Shown here: one piece after another, positions 13,347 to 19,441 of the stretch
Position numbering within the stretch: the stretch's first letter is position 1
How the letters are laid out: each line of letters opens with the position of its first letter
NCBI GenBank assembly: GCA_029004695.1
Contig: JAQVZB010000001.1
Location: 1 to 36,818, forward strand
DNA from: Bacilli bacterium
Lineage (GTDB): Bacteria > Bacillota_I > Bacilli_A > RF39 > UBA660
Direction: 5' to 3'
Length of the DNA stretch: 36,818 nucleotides
Program-made: the position numbers and the translations under genes
Notes under the pieces: generated by a model
The model's database searches: none
What the model was told of the DNA's origin: nothing
The model's input: only the letters and a program-made list of their open reading frames with translations

Positions 13347-13937
13347 TCAGTTATTTTCGTTAATTTTTTTACTTCTTTTTTTTTCCTCTATATTAAACAT
13401 TGTAATTGCAATTTCATATCCAATAATTCCTACTAGTGGAACAATAATACATAAATAAAATCCTGTATCTGTTGCAATTATTTTATAAAAAAATGATAAT
13501 GAATTAATTTTATATGTTACAACACCTAATAATTGATTTTCATAAATAGTTGGATCTTCTATTATATTGCTTAAACCTTTAGCTCTAAAAAAATATTCTC
13601 CTCTTGTATTAGTTTCTACACTAATTACTTTGTGGGTTACAATTTTACCTTTAATATCTCCCGTTCTACCAAAATAACTTATATCATCACCAGGCTTAAT
13701 AGTCGAAGGATCTACTTCTTTTGATAATAATACATCACCTATTTTATATTCAGGCTCCATACTAGCAGTTACAACGGTAAATACCCGATAATTAAAGAAT
13801 GATAATTTATTATCACTAAATCGTTGTAAATATACAGTTACTATAAATGCTACAACGAATATAACAAATATAATGTTTATTATATTTATTAATATTTTTA
13901 ATCCTTTATTATTAGTTAATTCTTTTAATTTTTTCAT
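13347..13937 (-). CDS. sipW: SipW-type (ER/archaeal-type, S26B) signal peptidase I
   Basis: N-terminal TM, TASMEP (Ser nucleophile box), IVTHKVI (His box) and a C-terminal TM as in SipW. The usual TKGDNN box reads AKGLSN. An AAAGGA RBS lies 14 nt after the upstream stop. Confidence 0.75.
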   Translation of the reverse strand: MKKLKELTNNKGLKILINIINIIFVIFVVAFIVTVYLQRFSDNKLSFFNYRVFTVVTASMEPEYKIGDVLLSKEVDPSTIKPGDDISYFGRTGDIKGKIVTHKVISVETNTRGEYFFRAKGLSNIIEDPTIYENQLLGVVTYKINSLSFFYKIIATDTGFYLCIIVPLVGIIGYEIAITMFNIEEKKRSKKINENN

Positions 13938-13951
13938 ATATTTTTCCTTTT

Positions 13952-15088
13952 CTACAAATAATTTTGAGCTTTTTCTAAATATTCGTCAATAGCGCTTTTA
14001 AATTTATTTTTAATTTCTGATCCGTCTATTTCAGTTTTATTTTTTTCTTTTTTTAATTCTTCAGCTATTATATTTAAGATTTCTTGTTCCGATATTATTG
14101 TACCATTGCTTAGTAACATCGAAATAACTCTTTTAATTTGTTGATGCATTAGGATAATAGCATATTCTGATATTCTCTTCTTCTGTTCTCTTTTCGAAGA
14201 AGATATCGAATCTAATACAAAATATTCCATTAAAAATGCATCATCTAATATTGATTTTAATAAACCGTCACCAGTTGTATCAAGTCCTTCTTTTTTATTT
14301 TCTTTAATTGACTCTTCATATGATTGTAAAAAGTCCCATAATTTAACTGCTGCTTGAAAGTTAGGATTTTTGAGAATTACATTTGTTCTTTTTATTGGAG
14401 AGGTTACTTTGGCTATATTAGCTTTATCTAAAGTTTCATATAATTCACTTCTTTGCCATCCAAATATAAATTTATTAATAATTTCTAATCTTTCATTTAT
14501 TTCTTCTAATTTTTCTTCAATAGATTTTATATTTTTTCGATCTTTTTCAGAATCAGGCACTTCATTAGCAGTTATTTTCAATTCAATATTAATTTTTTCT
14601 TCGCCATTATGAGTAGTAGCTGCATACTCTAATACTTTTTCATCTTTTACTTTAATATTTTCTAATTCTTTTTCTTTTTTCATTATAAAACGAGATAGGT
14701 TATATATTAGGGTAAAAATAAATTTATTTTCATAAGTATTAAAAGTTTCTTCTGATCTTTCAATTAAAATTTTCGATGGTGTTACTTCTTGAGTGGTTTC
14801 ATCTATTTTTTCTATATAATGGGTATGTCTTGATAGATCTTTTATACTAGATACACTAATTTTTTTAGCTCTCTCTACTTTAACAACATCTTCTTCTCTT
14901 ACTAAAGCAACTTTCGGATTGGTAAAAATGTTATCTATATATGGGCATGCGTACTCGATCTCATCAATCCATTTAAATTCAAGAAAATTACTTGAAAAAT
15001 CTGCTTGATAAAACATTTCAGAGCTTAACTTTTGAATAAAGGTATCACTTTTATCATTTAATTTTTTATTTAACTCTAATTTAGCCAT
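13952..15088 (-). CDS. cytoplasmic partner of the McrB-like GTPase; McrC/DUF2357 N-terminal-like, no recognisable PD-(D/E)xK nuclease motif
   Basis: ETFNTYENKFIFTLIYNL (aa 114-131) resembles the (D/N)TxENRF helix of McrC/DUF2357 proteins. There is a central coiled coil. I see no D...(D/E)xK block in the C-terminal half. The gene lies immediately downstream of the McrB-like gene. Confidence 0.35.
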   Translation of the reverse strand: MAKLELNKKLNDKSDTFIQKLSSEMFYQADFSSNFLEFKWIDEIEYACPYIDNIFTNPKVALVREEDVVKVERAKKISVSSIKDLSRHTHYIEKIDETTQEVTPSKILIERSEETFNTYENKFIFTLIYNLSRFIMKKEKELENIKVKDEKVLEYAATTHNGEEKINIELKITANEVPDSEKDRKNIKSIEEKLEEINERLEIINKFIFGWQRSELYETLDKANIAKVTSPIKRTNVILKNPNFQAAVKLWDFLQSYEESIKENKKEGLDTTGDGLLKSILDDAFLMEYFVLDSISSSKREQKKRISEYAIILMHQQIKRVISMLLSNGTIISEQEILNIIAEELKKEKNKTEIDGSEIKNKFKSAIDEYLEKAQNYL

Positions 15089-15106
15089 ATATATTCTTCC
15101 TTTCTA

Positions 15107-16639
15107 CTATGCCGACTTTTTAATTCTTTCTACAAATTCAATACATTCTGCCATTTTGCCATTACCAAATGTCTTATTTAAATAACTAACAAAAGGATCA
15201 ATTTCATCTCTTATAAATAAAATATTTAATTGTTCGAATTTACGTAATATCTTTTTAGCAATAAAATAATCAATTCCTTCGACTTCAGAACCTCCACAAG
15301 CAACATAAACTGGTACAAAAGTATTTAACTGTTTTAAAATACGATTACCAAATGCGATACGGAAATGTTTTATAACATAATCATCTAATTCTTTAATCTT
15401 TTTTTGATTACCGCTAGATATCGGATAATTAATTACTGCATCTTCAAATAATGATTCTAAATAGCTCGCATTTATTTCAATTGCTTCTTGATCACGGGTT
15501 TTAAATGGTTCAACTTTAGTATTAATATCTATCGGCATTGCGCGGTCATAAACTTTATCAGTTACCATAAATGTTGAGTCATCATTATTGATTGTCCCAA
15601 TATACCATAAATTACCCGATAATTTAAGTTTACCTTTTGTAATATATTTAGGATCATCATCCCAACCACTAGTAACTAATTCAATTACCCATTCATCTCT
15701 AGATGGCATTTCTAATATTGATAACATTTCAGCAAAGTAATATTCAACACGTGCTATATTCATTTCATCGAGAATTATCGTATGAATATCATCAGTATAA
15801 CCAGAAGTATATAATTCTGCTAAAACATCACTTTCATTGAACTTTTTAGTAAATTCATTAAAATAACCTAATAATTCAGTTTTATCTCTCCATGATGGTT
15901 CTACTGAAGCTATACAAGAATCTTTATTAATATATTTTCCCCAAGCATATGCAAGTGATGTTTTACCAGTTCCAGATATACCTTGAAGAATTACTAATTT
16001 ACCACAAGATAATCCAGCAATAAAACTCCTTAAAAGTGATATATCATAATAAAGTTTTAATTGACTAGCATTAAAACATCTGAAATTTTCTGCTATTTCT
16101 TTTAATGTATAATTATTTGCATATTTTTTAACTTTATAAGTTTCATATTTTTCATCAATCATTGTAAGTTTTGCAAAACGTGAATTTGAAGTATCGATAA
16201 CACTTTCTTCTTCTCCTTCACTTTCTTCACTTAAGTCATTTATTTCTTCACCAGGTTTTAATCCTAATTGCGAAACTTTCATTGCCATTATTTCATTCTT
16301 TTCTTTCATTAATTTATTTACTTGATTATTTAAGCTATTAATTTCATCAAGTAAATCTTCTTGATTAACTCTTGTTCTTCCAATTTGAATAAGTTTTTTA
16401 ATTCCAAAAATAATTAAAATTGTAATTGATAAAATAATTATTACTACTAATGCTATTGCTAAACCAACAAATATCCATTCTGTTCCATTAAAATTGTCTT
16501 GGTAACTTTCTAATATACTTTTATAATCTTTATAATTAACCATCTTGAATATTCCTTTACCAAAACCAGAAATAATATCCATAAATCCACTAAAAAATAC
16601 TGAAAGAAATTCATATAAAAATCTGAAAAATGTATCCAT
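15107..16639 (-). CDS. membrane-anchored McrB-family AAA+ GTPase (AAA_5-type)
   Basis: Walker A GISGTGKT (15959-15982). Walker B IILDEMNIARVEYYFAEMLSILE (DE at 15764-15769), compare McrB IIDEINRANLSKVFGE. NxxD box INNDDS (15578-15589), compare McrB NTAD. The N-terminus has a hydrophobic segment (aa 3-27), a TM helix (aa 55-80) followed by KKLIQIGRTR, then a coiled coil and an acidic linker. The ATG lies 2 nt after the upstream stop, with a GAGGGTGA RBS. Confidence 0.75.
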   Translation of the reverse strand: MDTFFRFLYEFLSVFFSGFMDIISGFGKGIFKMVNYKDYKSILESYQDNFNGTEWIFVGLAIALVVIIILSITILIIFGIKKLIQIGRTRVNQEDLLDEINSLNNQVNKLMKEKNEIMAMKVSQLGLKPGEEINDLSEESEGEEESVIDTSNSRFAKLTMIDEKYETYKVKKYANNYTLKEIAENFRCFNASQLKLYYDISLLRSFIAGLSCGKLVILQGISGTGKTSLAYAWGKYINKDSCIASVEPSWRDKTELLGYFNEFTKKFNESDVLAELYTSGYTDDIHTIILDEMNIARVEYYFAEMLSILEMPSRDEWVIELVTSGWDDDPKYITKGKLKLSGNLWYIGTINNDDSTFMVTDKVYDRAMPIDINTKVEPFKTRDQEAIEINASYLESLFEDAVINYPISSGNQKKIKELDDYVIKHFRIAFGNRILKQLNTFVPVYVACGGSEVEGIDYFIAKKILRKFEQLNILFIRDEIDPFVSYLNKTFGNGKMAECIEFVERIKKSA

Positions 16640-16641
16640 TA

Positions 16642-18777: not shown

Positions 18778-18812
18778 ACTACCCTTTCCGATCCTAATAT
18801 ACTCTACTATTC

Positions 18813-18865
18813 ATTTTATCATAAAGACAGAAGGTTTGTAAATCAAATTAGTGTTTTTTGTCGAA
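18813..18865 (-). promoter_or_regulatory. promoter of the peptidase/GTPase operon with an upstream TTCGACAA box
   Basis: On the minus strand: TTCGACAA (18858-18865), 15 nt, TTTACA (18837-18842), an 18-nt spacer ending in TGa, then TAAAAT (18813-18818). Confidence 0.5.
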
Positions 18866-18883
18866 ATATATTGTGTGACAAAA

Positions 18884-18911
18884 ACAAAAAAAATAGAATT
18901 AAATTCTATTT
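18884..18911 (-). terminator. intrinsic terminator after the 176-aa gene
   Basis: The AAATAGAA / TTCTATTT stem (18891-18898 and 18904-18911) is followed on the minus strand by a T-run (the A-run at 18884-18890 on plus). It overlaps the stop codon. Confidence 0.5.
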
Positions 18912-19441
18912 TATAACGCTTCTTCTTTACCGTATTTAATTTCGACAATAATAGCATATAATTCATATATAAAAATTAAGAAACTTGGTAAAAGTATGAA
19001 AAAGAAGAATCCCCAGGTTGATTGGAAAAAATTATATACTGTACCAATATCATTATAAACTTTATTAGCTTCTCCAACTATAAGATCTTCAGAATATGTT
19101 GCTCCATTTTGAAATGATAATGCTTGATCTTCAATATGAACTTCTCCTACTATACCAAAATCAATAATTGGTGCGCCGGTTTTTTGAGTTTTATAAACAA
19201 ATATTTCATTTCCTATTGAAATATTATCAAGCTTTCTTTGTTCAACTATAACAATATCACCTTTTTGATATTTATCAGAAGTTATTTTATTTTTTATTGG
19301 TACGATTGTAAGATCTCCAAATTGAGTTACACCGTATTTATTTATATTTAACAATAACACAGTATTAATAATTACAAATGAGAAAAATACAATTGCTAAA
19401 ATTCCAATTACAATTTTTTTGATTACTTTTAATATCTTCAT
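18911..19441 (-). CDS. SipW-like pseudo-peptidase (same topology, nucleophile and His boxes absent)
   Basis: It has an N-terminal TM and a C-terminal TM (FFFFILLPSFLIFIYELYAIIV). KGDIVIVEQ and IGNEIFVY align with the beta-barrel boxes of SipW. The SxSMxP position reads IVPIKN, and there is no THR(V/I) box. AGGTGG RBS. Confidence 0.45.
   Translation of the reverse strand: MKILKVIKKIVIGILAIVFFSFVIINTVLLLNINKYGVTQFGDLTIVPIKNKITSDKYQKGDIVIVEQRKLDNISIGNEIFVYKTQKTGAPIIDFGIVGEVHIEDQALSFQNGATYSEDLIVGEANKVYNDIGTVYNFFQSTWGFFFFILLPSFLIFIYELYAIIVEIKYGKEEAL

Follow-up and report, generated by a model that had tools for sequence, protein, structure and literature searches.

The three genes analyzed here, designated P1 (positions 13347-13937), P2 (16642-18777) and P3 (18911-19441), are located on the minus strand of a DNA stretch of 36,818 nucleotides from a Bacilli bacterium (GenBank assembly GCA_029004695.1, contig JAQVZB010000001.1); "the window" denotes this whole stretch. 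The three open reading frames were verified at these coordinates. They are paralogous genes of the endoplasmic reticulum (ER)/archaeal-type signal-peptidase family (S26B, SipW-like) and belong to one conserved operon of uncultured Bacilli with a low content of guanine plus cytosine (GC). An initial annotation of the window had described three SipW-type homologues, namely a standalone protein with an altered Asp box, a true fusion protein and a copy without catalytic residues, and this description was borne out. The explanation that we favor, which combines the three paralogues, the architecture of the operon and a proposed mechanism, is fairly probable as a whole.

A scan using one genome per species yielded 117 loci with a relative of P2, and the best 80 of these 117 loci were analyzed for synteny. 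All 80 stem from metagenome bins of uncultured organisms, which mostly carry the labels Bacilli, Mollicutes, Tenericutes or Erysipelotrichia. Family alignments and profiles of P1, P2 and P3 were built from 54-64 orthologues each, taken from related loci. The GC content of the window is 22-31% per 2-kb piece, and nearly all genes are located on the minus strand. The cluster extends from about 11.3 kb to 34 kb and comprises exported proteins, the three signal-peptidase homologues and a pair of proteins related to nucleoside triphosphatases (NTPases).

Three S26B paralogues in one cluster

P1 (196 amino acids, aa) reached 70.0 bits on the model TIGR02228 (sigpep_I_arch), which has a curated cutoff of 51.85, and P2 (711 aa) reached 68.8 bits, with the match confined to aa 21-163. 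The catalytic boxes read TASMEP, VTHKV and AKGLSN in P1 and TNSMED, ITHRVV and TKGDANNAKD in P2. Two hydrophobic segments were found in each of P1, P2 and P3, in agreement with the topology proposed initially; the transmembrane (TM) segments of P1 comprise aa 10-41 and 153-183. Basic residues at the N-terminus and behind TM2 suggest that the catalytic domain is extracytoplasmic. The SipW equivalog model NF046067 has a cutoff of 190 bits, and P1 and P2 scored 64.3 and 53.5 bits, respectively. Judged by sequence, P1 and P2 are relatives of SipW and not its orthologues.

The solved structures closest in sequence to P1 and P2 are those of human SEC11A and SEC11C, and a profile of 36 P2 homologues matched SEC11A with an E-value of 4e-5. 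The triad Ser56-His96-Asp122 of the human complex was determined by cryo-electron microscopy and mutagenesis; Asp116 points into the core and forms a salt bridge with Arg97, and a mutant at this position is less stable but retains activity (bioRxiv 10.1101/2020.11.11.378711). All 61 P2 orthologues share S63, H99, D114 and D120, and 60 of the 61 also have R100; the salt bridge formed in SEC11A by R97 and D116, the residues of the "HR" and "GD" boxes, is therefore represented by R100 and D114. P1 lacks this Arg/Asp pair. Its triad Ser59-His102-Asp128 is invariant in all 64 orthologues, with D128, located in the sequence IIED, being equivalent to D122 of SEC11A. Position 122 of P1, the Asp of the GD box and equivalent to SEC11A D116, is occupied by L, I or T in 57/64 orthologues, and position 103, the place of the Arg partner, by E, Q or K in most of them. 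Both positions co-vary: 51 orthologues combine E or Q with L or I, two combine R with D, and four carry a charge-swapped combination of E with R or K. The only two orthologues having Asp at position 122 also carry Arg at position 103. This co-variation therefore indicates a remodelled structural contact and not a dead active site. P1 is probably active, because its altered Asp is the structural one and the human SEC11 mutant at this position stays active. Comparison with SEC11A/C and the family profiles thus showed the initially assigned catalytic residues to be right in outline and those of P1 to need correction: the change to AKGLSN is real, but the residue altered is the salt-bridge Asp, and the Asp of the triad is present throughout.

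P3 (176 aa, two TM segments) reached just 14.2 bits (E 0.03) on TIGR02228, which is below the cutoff, and its single sequence gave no match to the PDB. Alignment of family profiles with hhalign related P3 to P1 with 96.8% probability and an E-value of 2.6e-10 over 162 columns comprising TM1, the beta domain and TM2. The corresponding values for P3 and the N-terminal part of P2 were 79% and E 1.6e-5, and P1 and P2 were related to each other with E 7e-21. Because the family profiles align end to end at E 2.6e-10, P3 is, at the level of sequence profiles, a genuine S26B homologue; the possibility that it is unrelated to S26 peptidases was ruled out by this match over the whole length. All three columns of the triad are changed. 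At the Ser position the residue varies (K in the window); an invariant Gly (G96) takes the place of the His, and in 54 of 55 sequences Asn112 takes that of the Asp. A shifted nucleophile was ruled out as well, since the Ser/Thr located two to three residues downstream (positions 54-55) is not invariant, with A in 6/55 sequences and with N, H, F or L occurring at the position after it, and box D offers no His or Lys as general base, its column being the invariant Gly. The suggestion that P3 is an inactive SipW-type homologue has thereby been substantiated.

P3 is 42-92% identical among 54 related loci and has 148 homologue clusters in the database, all of about 175 aa. Its most conserved stretch comprises TM2 and the short cytoplasmic tail (S-x-WGF...L-x-P...YE...EIKYG). 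This pattern of conservation therefore indicates purifying selection and not decay, and we regard P3 as a functional pseudo-enzyme, i.e. a pseudo-peptidase.

The cytoplasmic module of P2 and its proposed link to a GTPase

P2 consists of three parts. The N-terminal part (aa 1-170; window 18268-18777) comprises TM1, the complete S26B domain with S63, H99, R100, D114 and D120, and TM2, the second hydrophobic segment extending over aa 142-170. About 540 further residues follow, of which aa 171-349 (17731-18267) form a juxtamembrane helix and an acidic disordered linker, and aa 350-711 (16642-17730) a helical domain and an alpha/beta domain. The tail is placed in the cytoplasm because basic residues precede TM1 and come after TM2; following the positive-inside rule, a cytoplasmic location is predicted for the linker as well. 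At least 475 homologues were found at E ≤ 1e-3, the best 120 of which are nearly all 650-820 aa long, and the alignment of 36 P2 sequences is collinear end to end. The fusion is thus genuine, as had been assumed initially, and the joining of two genes by a sequencing error was ruled out by hundreds of full-length homologues that match end to end.

A structural model of P2 was calculated with AlphaFold2 (AF2) from the 36-sequence alignment and showed a mean predicted local distance difference test score (pLDDT) of 69. It comprises a TM1 helix (aa 5-43), a beta-rich peptidase domain (54-137), TM2 (150-168) and the juxtamembrane helix, followed by the disordered acidic linker (203-349), the helical domain (355-516) and the alpha/beta domain (522-705; window 16663-17214). 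The linker contains 40 Asp and Glu versus 20 Lys and Arg residues, its pLDDT is below 50 for aa 203-294 and 311-349, and its length varies highly among homologues. Mean pLDDT values per 10-residue block were mostly 73-93 for aa 350-711 and mostly 81-93 for the alpha/beta domain. In a Foldseek search of the PDB, the top matches of the peptidase domain were SipA of Streptococcus pyogenes (4n31), a protein reportedly without catalytic residues, and LexA/UmuD.

Within the linker, a motif at aa ~283-310 (window 17848-17931; LEKTqFFRIIPVD...TmLEIAkyE, or LEKTxFFRIIPVD...TLLEIAxNE) is conserved. V293 and E304 are invariant, E297, T301, I305, A306 and E309 are near-invariant, and the surrounding linker cannot be aligned. 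The motif looks like a docking peptide for a partner. In some P2 orthologues, such as P0039 and P0050, its first half is repeated in tandem, with three or four copies. It had also been proposed that the sequence ATYTAV, at the end of the P2 TM segment, resembles a substrate motif. The loose motif defined below for exported proteins occurs in just 3/64 P2 orthologues, and a self-substrate role of this segment is not supported.

The initial annotation had described the P2 tail as an acidic linker and a helical domain. Both are present, but the tail additionally ends in the alpha/beta domain, which was revealed by structure prediction and the subsequent fold search. Foldseek matches of this C-terminal domain were the EAL domains of Bd1971, FimX, MucR, MorA, RocR and PA3825, with E-values from 4.5e-4 to 3e-2. 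Pfam gave no match for the tail, even at E ≤ 10, a comparison of the P2 family profile with PDB sequences revealed no EAL match for it, and the EAL signature residues (EAL, N, ExxE, DDFGTG, K, EGVE, Q) were not recognisable by eye in the consensus of the fused family. According to the model, aa 522-705 resemble EAL at the fold level only, with no detectable sequence-level relation to PF00563. Because the EAL link cannot be confirmed by sequence, the domain is named EAL-fold-like.

An exhaustive phmmer search with P2 aa 350-711 yielded 276 representative clusters. Most of them are fusions of 630-870 aa; additionally, standalone proteins of about 325 aa were found which cover most of the module and adjoin McrB-like genes. 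One such standalone module (P0485, 330 aa) is encoded on a contig of a distant relative with a GC content of 26%. The gene order of this locus is P3-like, S208-like, a 165-aa peptidase, S180-like, S623-like, the module, the GTPase, DUF2357, P1-like and S409-like (exported proteins are named S followed by a number, see below). The 165-aa peptidase is 44% identical to P2 aa 13-152, and the module gene lies directly upstream of a GTPase gene which is 59% identical to that of the window. Among the available evidence, this pattern of fission and fusion speaks most strongly for a cooperation of the module with the GTPase, the fusion presumably tethering the peptidase to the GTPase. The functional link between the fused domain and the GTPase proposed in the initial annotation has thus been strengthened, both by the split module and by the adjacency of P2 and the GTPase in 73/80 loci. 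The distant relative with the split P2 (L081, positions 3531-4644 of an ENA ERZ27237428 contig) contains two extra S26-like genes of 192 and 187 aa right after the S1220-like gene, and the 187-aa copy appears by eye to be without the Ser box. A single locus can therefore encode five or more peptidase homologues.

The GTPase gene (15107-16639, minus strand) encodes an AAA+ protein of 510 aa with a conserved N-terminal stretch of 50 aa, one TM segment, a heptad-like stretch and the NTPase domain. All of its best PDB matches were E. coli McrB (6ut6, 7vsr, 6hz4), with the similarity extending from Walker A to the signature motif. No other gene of the cluster is as conserved, its full-length matches in 70+ loci showing 57-90% identity; Walker A, Walker B and the motif GTINNDDS are invariant in 70 sequences. 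Hydrophobic windows within aa 50-87 indicate a single TM segment, and the following stretch (~aa 95-125) appears heptad-like by eye. The N-terminal aa 1-50 are hydrophobic/amphipathic and highly conserved (F-x-RF-x-YEF...F-x-G); following the positive-inside rule, they would face the exterior, as the peptidase domains do. The gene located at 13952-15088 (minus strand) encodes a McrC-like protein of 378 aa without a hydrophobic segment. It matched Pfam DUF2357 with E 2e-11 and 44 bits (cutoff 23.3) in aa 33-153 only. No nuclease domain was detected in this protein by Pfam, PDB or PADLOC searches, and the PDB search for a relation to McrC returned spurious BAG-domain matches only.

The gene order conserved among the loci is major-type exported protein(s), S357, C542, S1220, S180, S623, P3, P2, GTPase, DUF2357, P1, S409 and a convergent S208. 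P2 was found together with the GTPase in 73 of the 80 loci, together with the GTPase, DUF2357 and P1 in 66, and together with P3 in 54; the misses are mostly caused by contig ends. In five loci (L030, L034, L035, L045 and L047) the cluster is split, with P3 accompanying S1220, S180 and S623, and P2 accompanying the GTPase, DUF2357, P1 and S409. Because split clusters keep P3 and P2 in separate gene sets, a division of labor between the two groups is hinted at. A bidirectional terminator-like hairpin (12008-12033) between the convergent genes S208 and S409 is likely the 3' end of the long minus-strand operon, and another terminator-like hairpin (28582-28610, minus strand) lies just after S428, between the genes of the major-type subunits and the assembly operon. 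Eight terminator-like sites were found in the region versus 2.4 in shuffled sequence. A promoter scan was uninformative in this AT-rich DNA (180 sites versus 163 expected).

Exported proteins and neighboring genes

Nine exported, beta-rich proteins of the cluster (S208, S409, S623, S180, S1220, S357, S428, S511 and S480) share an N-terminal basic stretch followed by a hydrophobic segment that ends in T-[Y/L]-[A/S/T]-x-[F/Y/W/L]. S409 (12083-13312, minus strand), which always follows P1, carries TLAWF after this segment; S208 (11319-11945, plus strand), convergent to the operon, carries TYSRY. The genes S623, S180 and S1220 (19512-25610, minus strand), which travel with P3 in split clusters, encode TYTFAKY, TYSVF and TLAEF, respectively. 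The remaining exported proteins are encoded at 27483-34074 on the minus strand, namely S357 and the paralogous, abundant-type proteins S428, S511 and S480 (STYAWF/Y). Among orthologues, the loose motif was present in 52/52 (S208) and 64/65 (S409) sequences, and in 44/49, 44/46, 29/32, 11/11, 13/13 and 3/3 sequences of six further exported families. Its frequency in proteins not regarded as substrates was 3/64 for P2, 0/62 for P1, 2/54 for P3 and 3/73 for the GTPase. The motif resembles the SipW site of TasA, TWA/AF (a slash marks the cleavage point). An aromatic residue is located at position P2' of the SipW site (PMC10269814).

S428 (28672-29958, 428 aa) belongs to a family with more than 2000 homologue clusters and about 90 invariant columns, including four Cys. 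Its AF2 model, with a predicted template modelling score (pTM) of 0.81, shows a beta-rich body behind an N-terminal helix. Although the model is confident, a TasA-like nature of S428 could not be shown by Foldseek; the donor-strand pilins 7ueg, 7pnb and 9hdi, which include TasA-like archaeal pilins, matched at E 1.7-4.3 only. S511 and S480 additionally contain a C-terminal Ig-like domain (PF16403). The three genes (28672-34074) have a GC content of about 30% versus about 23% for the rest of the window.

Several neighboring genes were also recorded. C542 (25699-27327, minus strand), located between S357 and S1220, encodes a conserved cytoplasmic protein of 542 aa without a hydrophobic segment. 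M230 (29977-30669, minus strand) encodes a bitopic membrane protein of 230 aa that lacks the cleavage motif and always adjoins the genes of the major-type subunits. No family match was found for M230, nor for C542 in Pfam, NCBIfam and PADLOC. A DUF2207 membrane protein (34134-35798) ends in a long Gly-rich tail (SSGGGGFSSGGGGGGSFGGGGGGGGFR); in plus-strand orientation, its gene directly adjoins the 3' side of the last major-type subunit gene, which is the upstream side in the direction of transcription.

The region from about 1 to 11,200 of the window contains ordinary genes, including those for YunB, CotJB, a CotJC-like Mn catalase, a SpoU methylase and a P-type ATPase. Among them, the sporulation-associated genes for YunB, CotJB and the CotJC-like Mn catalase (3827-4543 and 6956-7916) adjoin the cluster, and a CotJC-like gene is also a neighbor in the related loci L004, L006, L026, L050 and L072. 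TasA and SipW of B. subtilis were first linked to spores. Because of this first link and of the sporulation genes beside the cluster, a spore-surface role of the cluster is conceivable.

Known systems and the proposed mechanism

The locus fits the description of CoCoPALM, a large clade of McrB-like GTPases which is named in one paragraph with its description deferred (Bell et al., eLife 2024, PMC11090510); no follow-up describing CoCoPALM was found in the literature. Shared features are a DUF2357/McrC-like partner (adjacent in 66/80 loci), P1, P2 and P3 flanking the GTPase/DUF2357 pair, and a Bacillota host. CoCoPALM GTPases belong to the McrB family and have an N-terminal TM segment with a coiled-coil (FtsB-like) segment; the GTPase of the window, with McrB matches at E ~2e-3, one TM segment and a stretch that looks heptad-like by eye, may have this architecture. 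CoCoPALM GTPases also carry an NxD variant of the McrB motif NxxD. The motif INNDDS of the locus fits both readings, GTINNDDS being readable as NxD or NxxD; in the phmmer alignment, which has no gaps here, NNDD is placed opposite NTAD. Not covered by that paragraph are the arrangement of three paralogues and the dead copy, the EAL-like fusion with its split form, the shared motif and the remodelled salt bridge.

The system shares with SipW of B. subtilis (tapA-sipW-tasA; MEROPS S26B) the fold family, the two-TM topology, the outer catalytic domain and the Ser-His-Asp chemistry, as well as enzyme genes beside dedicated (here putative) substrates and an aromatic residue just after the cleavage site. 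It differs in having three paralogues instead of one, in the missing Arg-Asp bridge of P1, in the scores of P1 and P2 below the equivalog cutoff, in the ~540 cytoplasmic residues of P2 versus ~20, and in substrates not recognisable as TasA or camelysin. A second, non-proteolytic function is known for the cytoplasmic C-terminal tail of SipW (PMC8767453). The system sipW-bsaA-bsaB-bsaC of Clostridium perfringens also encodes a dedicated SipW together with polymer-forming exported proteins, and a model proposes that SipW cleavage releases membrane-anchored BsaA oligomers (PMC11580942). In contrast to the cluster described here, it comprises a single peptidase, no McrB-like GTPase and TasA-like subunits.

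The signal-peptidase-like SipA of S. pyogenes (LepA, PDB 4N31) is essential for pilus polymerisation (PMC4049620). As the top structural neighbor of the P2 peptidase domain, it may serve as a good functional analogue of P3, and the suggestion of the initial annotation that the inactive copy acts as scaffold or chaperone gains a precedent by this analogy. SipA belongs to the S26A P-type (Ser-Lys) branch and has a sortase as partner, whereas P3 belongs to S26B, has two TM segments and has two apparently active paralogues as neighbors; a sortase gene was not identified in the window. SEC11A/C with SPCS1-3 (PDB 7P2P, 7P2Q), which are the best solved sequence relatives of P1 and P2 and have the same triad, show that a eukaryotic S26B enzyme works in a multi-subunit membrane complex, the non-catalytic subunits of which shape substrate selection (bioRxiv 10.1101/2020.11.11.378711). 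In that complex, the accessory subunits bear no relation to the peptidase, whereas in the present case the putative accessory protein P3 is a dead paralogue and a cytoplasmic NTPase is implicated. A likeness to FimX and LapD is suggested by the modelled fold of P2 aa 522-705, which resembles EAL domains including that of FimX. LapD transmits a signal from the cytoplasm to a protease located on the outer side of the membrane. The P2 domain differs from both in being covalently joined to the protease, without PF00563 membership or a recognisable signature.

From these comparisons we propose the following mechanism. The exported proteins would be inserted by Sec and held by their N-terminal segment. 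The cut by P1 and P2 would follow the small residue in the motif, e.g. STYA/WF, by analogy with TasA, and cleavage would free the N-terminus for entry into a surface polymer. The cytoplasmic module of P2 may dock on the complex of the McrB-like and McrC-like proteins, with GTP hydrolysis coupling or gating cleavage and assembly. P3 could be a subunit without catalytic function to which uncleaved anchors bind, or which organises P1 and P2 via its conserved TM2, and may preferentially serve the co-migrating group of S623, S180 and S1220. The cluster probably builds a cell-surface structure, and coupling of cleavage to the GTPase is suggested by comparative evidence. An extended version is put forward tentatively: a GTP-powered surface-polymer machine of Gram-positives in which cleavage would be the polymerisation step, P2 would be tethered via its EAL-like adaptor to a membrane-bound McrB-type hexameric motor, and P1 would act as a second, free peptidase, with the dead P3 as holder of subunits. 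The trio would correspond to the prepilin peptidase, platform and ATPase roles of type IV pili, and McrBC would have been exapted from DNA restriction to protein assembly.

Several observations speak against the proposed mechanism. Its statements are all inferred from homology and gene order. The similarity of the GTPase to McrB is weak for a single sequence (E ~2e-3). The assignment of the P2 domain as EAL-like comes from Foldseek alone, with template modelling scores to the target of ~0.3-0.5; the Pfam EAL model (PF00563) matched 1 of 27 P2 family members, at E 0.13, and hhalign found no match between the P2 module family and E. coli PdeH, the sequence of which was confirmed as EAL by Pfam. 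The GD-box Asp, replaced in P1, is reported to be essential in yeast Sec11 and important in SipW; the activity of P1 is hence probable and not certain. None of the nine exported proteins matched the SipW-cognate signal model or the TasA/camelysin families of Pfam and NCBIfam at E ≤ 1. Furthermore, a filament is hypothetical because the S428 model gave no significant match in a Foldseek search of the PDB, and an S-layer-like coat or an adhesin set would fit as well.

The missing EAL sequence signal also bears on a different explanation of the P2 module, in which the EAL-like domain is a degenerate receptor of the cyclic di-GMP (c-di-GMP) type that switches the outer peptidase in the manner of LapD and FimX and independently of the GTPase; the paralogues would then represent a regulated enzyme, a constitutive enzyme and a decoy. 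FimX is a degenerate c-di-GMP-binding EAL domain protein controlling the assembly of type IV pili, and the Foldseek matches of P2 include four FimX structures (4ag0, 3hv9, 4f3h, 4j40). Standalone relatives of the module show by eye an LDD(S/N)F-like stretch where EAL has DDFGTG, and the SipW tail provides a precedent for a signalling role. Neither Pfam nor hhalign detected an EAL relation, though, the signature residues are not recognisable in the fused consensus, and the strongest genomic link of the module, fused or free, is to the GTPase gene. We therefore consider such a switch unlikely; it is compatible with the GTPase-coupled mechanism and does not exclude it.

Several overlapping type I signal peptidases are normal in Bacillota, with five in B. 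subtilis, and P3 scores below the threshold of its family. P1 and P2 might accordingly be interchangeable housekeeping-type peptidases for subsets of substrates, with the P2 tail as a passenger and P3 as a decaying copy without function. Yet P3, with its invariant residues and conserved TM2, is maintained at ~175 aa and 42-92% identity in 54 loci and 148 clusters. The order P3-P2-GTPase-DUF2357-P1 is kept in ~80 species-level genomes, and the P2 tail is conserved end to end and adjoins the GTPase gene when separate. Plain redundancy is thus quite improbable. A defence island, in which the McrB/McrC-like pair would act against phages in the manner of type IV restriction and the peptidases would process toxins or abortive-infection effectors, is the least plausible explanation and can hardly be upheld: McrBC relatives are mostly defence systems (PMC11090510) and the GTPase matches the candidate-defence model PDC-M26A of PADLOC (E 2e-33), but this match is limited to aa 181-314 (the AAA+ core), the McrC-like protein showed no nuclease domain in the Pfam, PDB and PADLOC searches, the GTPase is membrane-anchored, the cluster consists mostly of large exported, structural-looking proteins, and its core-genome-like conservation and stable neighborhood contrast with the patchy distribution to be expected.

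The GTPase-coupled processing of exported proteins by a set of S26B paralogues is the explanation that we retain. The locus is a well-defined, widely distributed and essentially undescribed system; it is not a new category, as S26B peptidases, pseudo-peptidase factors and CoCoPALM-type loci are known. To our knowledge, bacterial ER-type signal peptidases are known almost only from SipW and TasA-like fibres. A three-member S26B set linked with a McrB-type GTPase suggests that the cytoplasm can regulate or energise the removal of signal peptides. Should the coupling be real, it would provide a specific example of an AAA+ motor of the restriction type that was recruited for envelope biogenesis. 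The coordinated loss of the Arg-Asp pair in P1 provides a natural example of a dispensable "conserved" Asp, agreeing with the mutagenesis of human SEC11, and P3 appears as a natural pseudo-peptidase, a dead paralogue kept as a conserved membrane-protein family beside two apparently active copies. At least 117 species-level genomes, which represent uncultured Bacilli and come from gut and digester metagenomes, contain the cluster. The major exported family comprises more than 2000 unannotated database clusters, and the system probably forms a dominant feature of the surface of these Bacilli.

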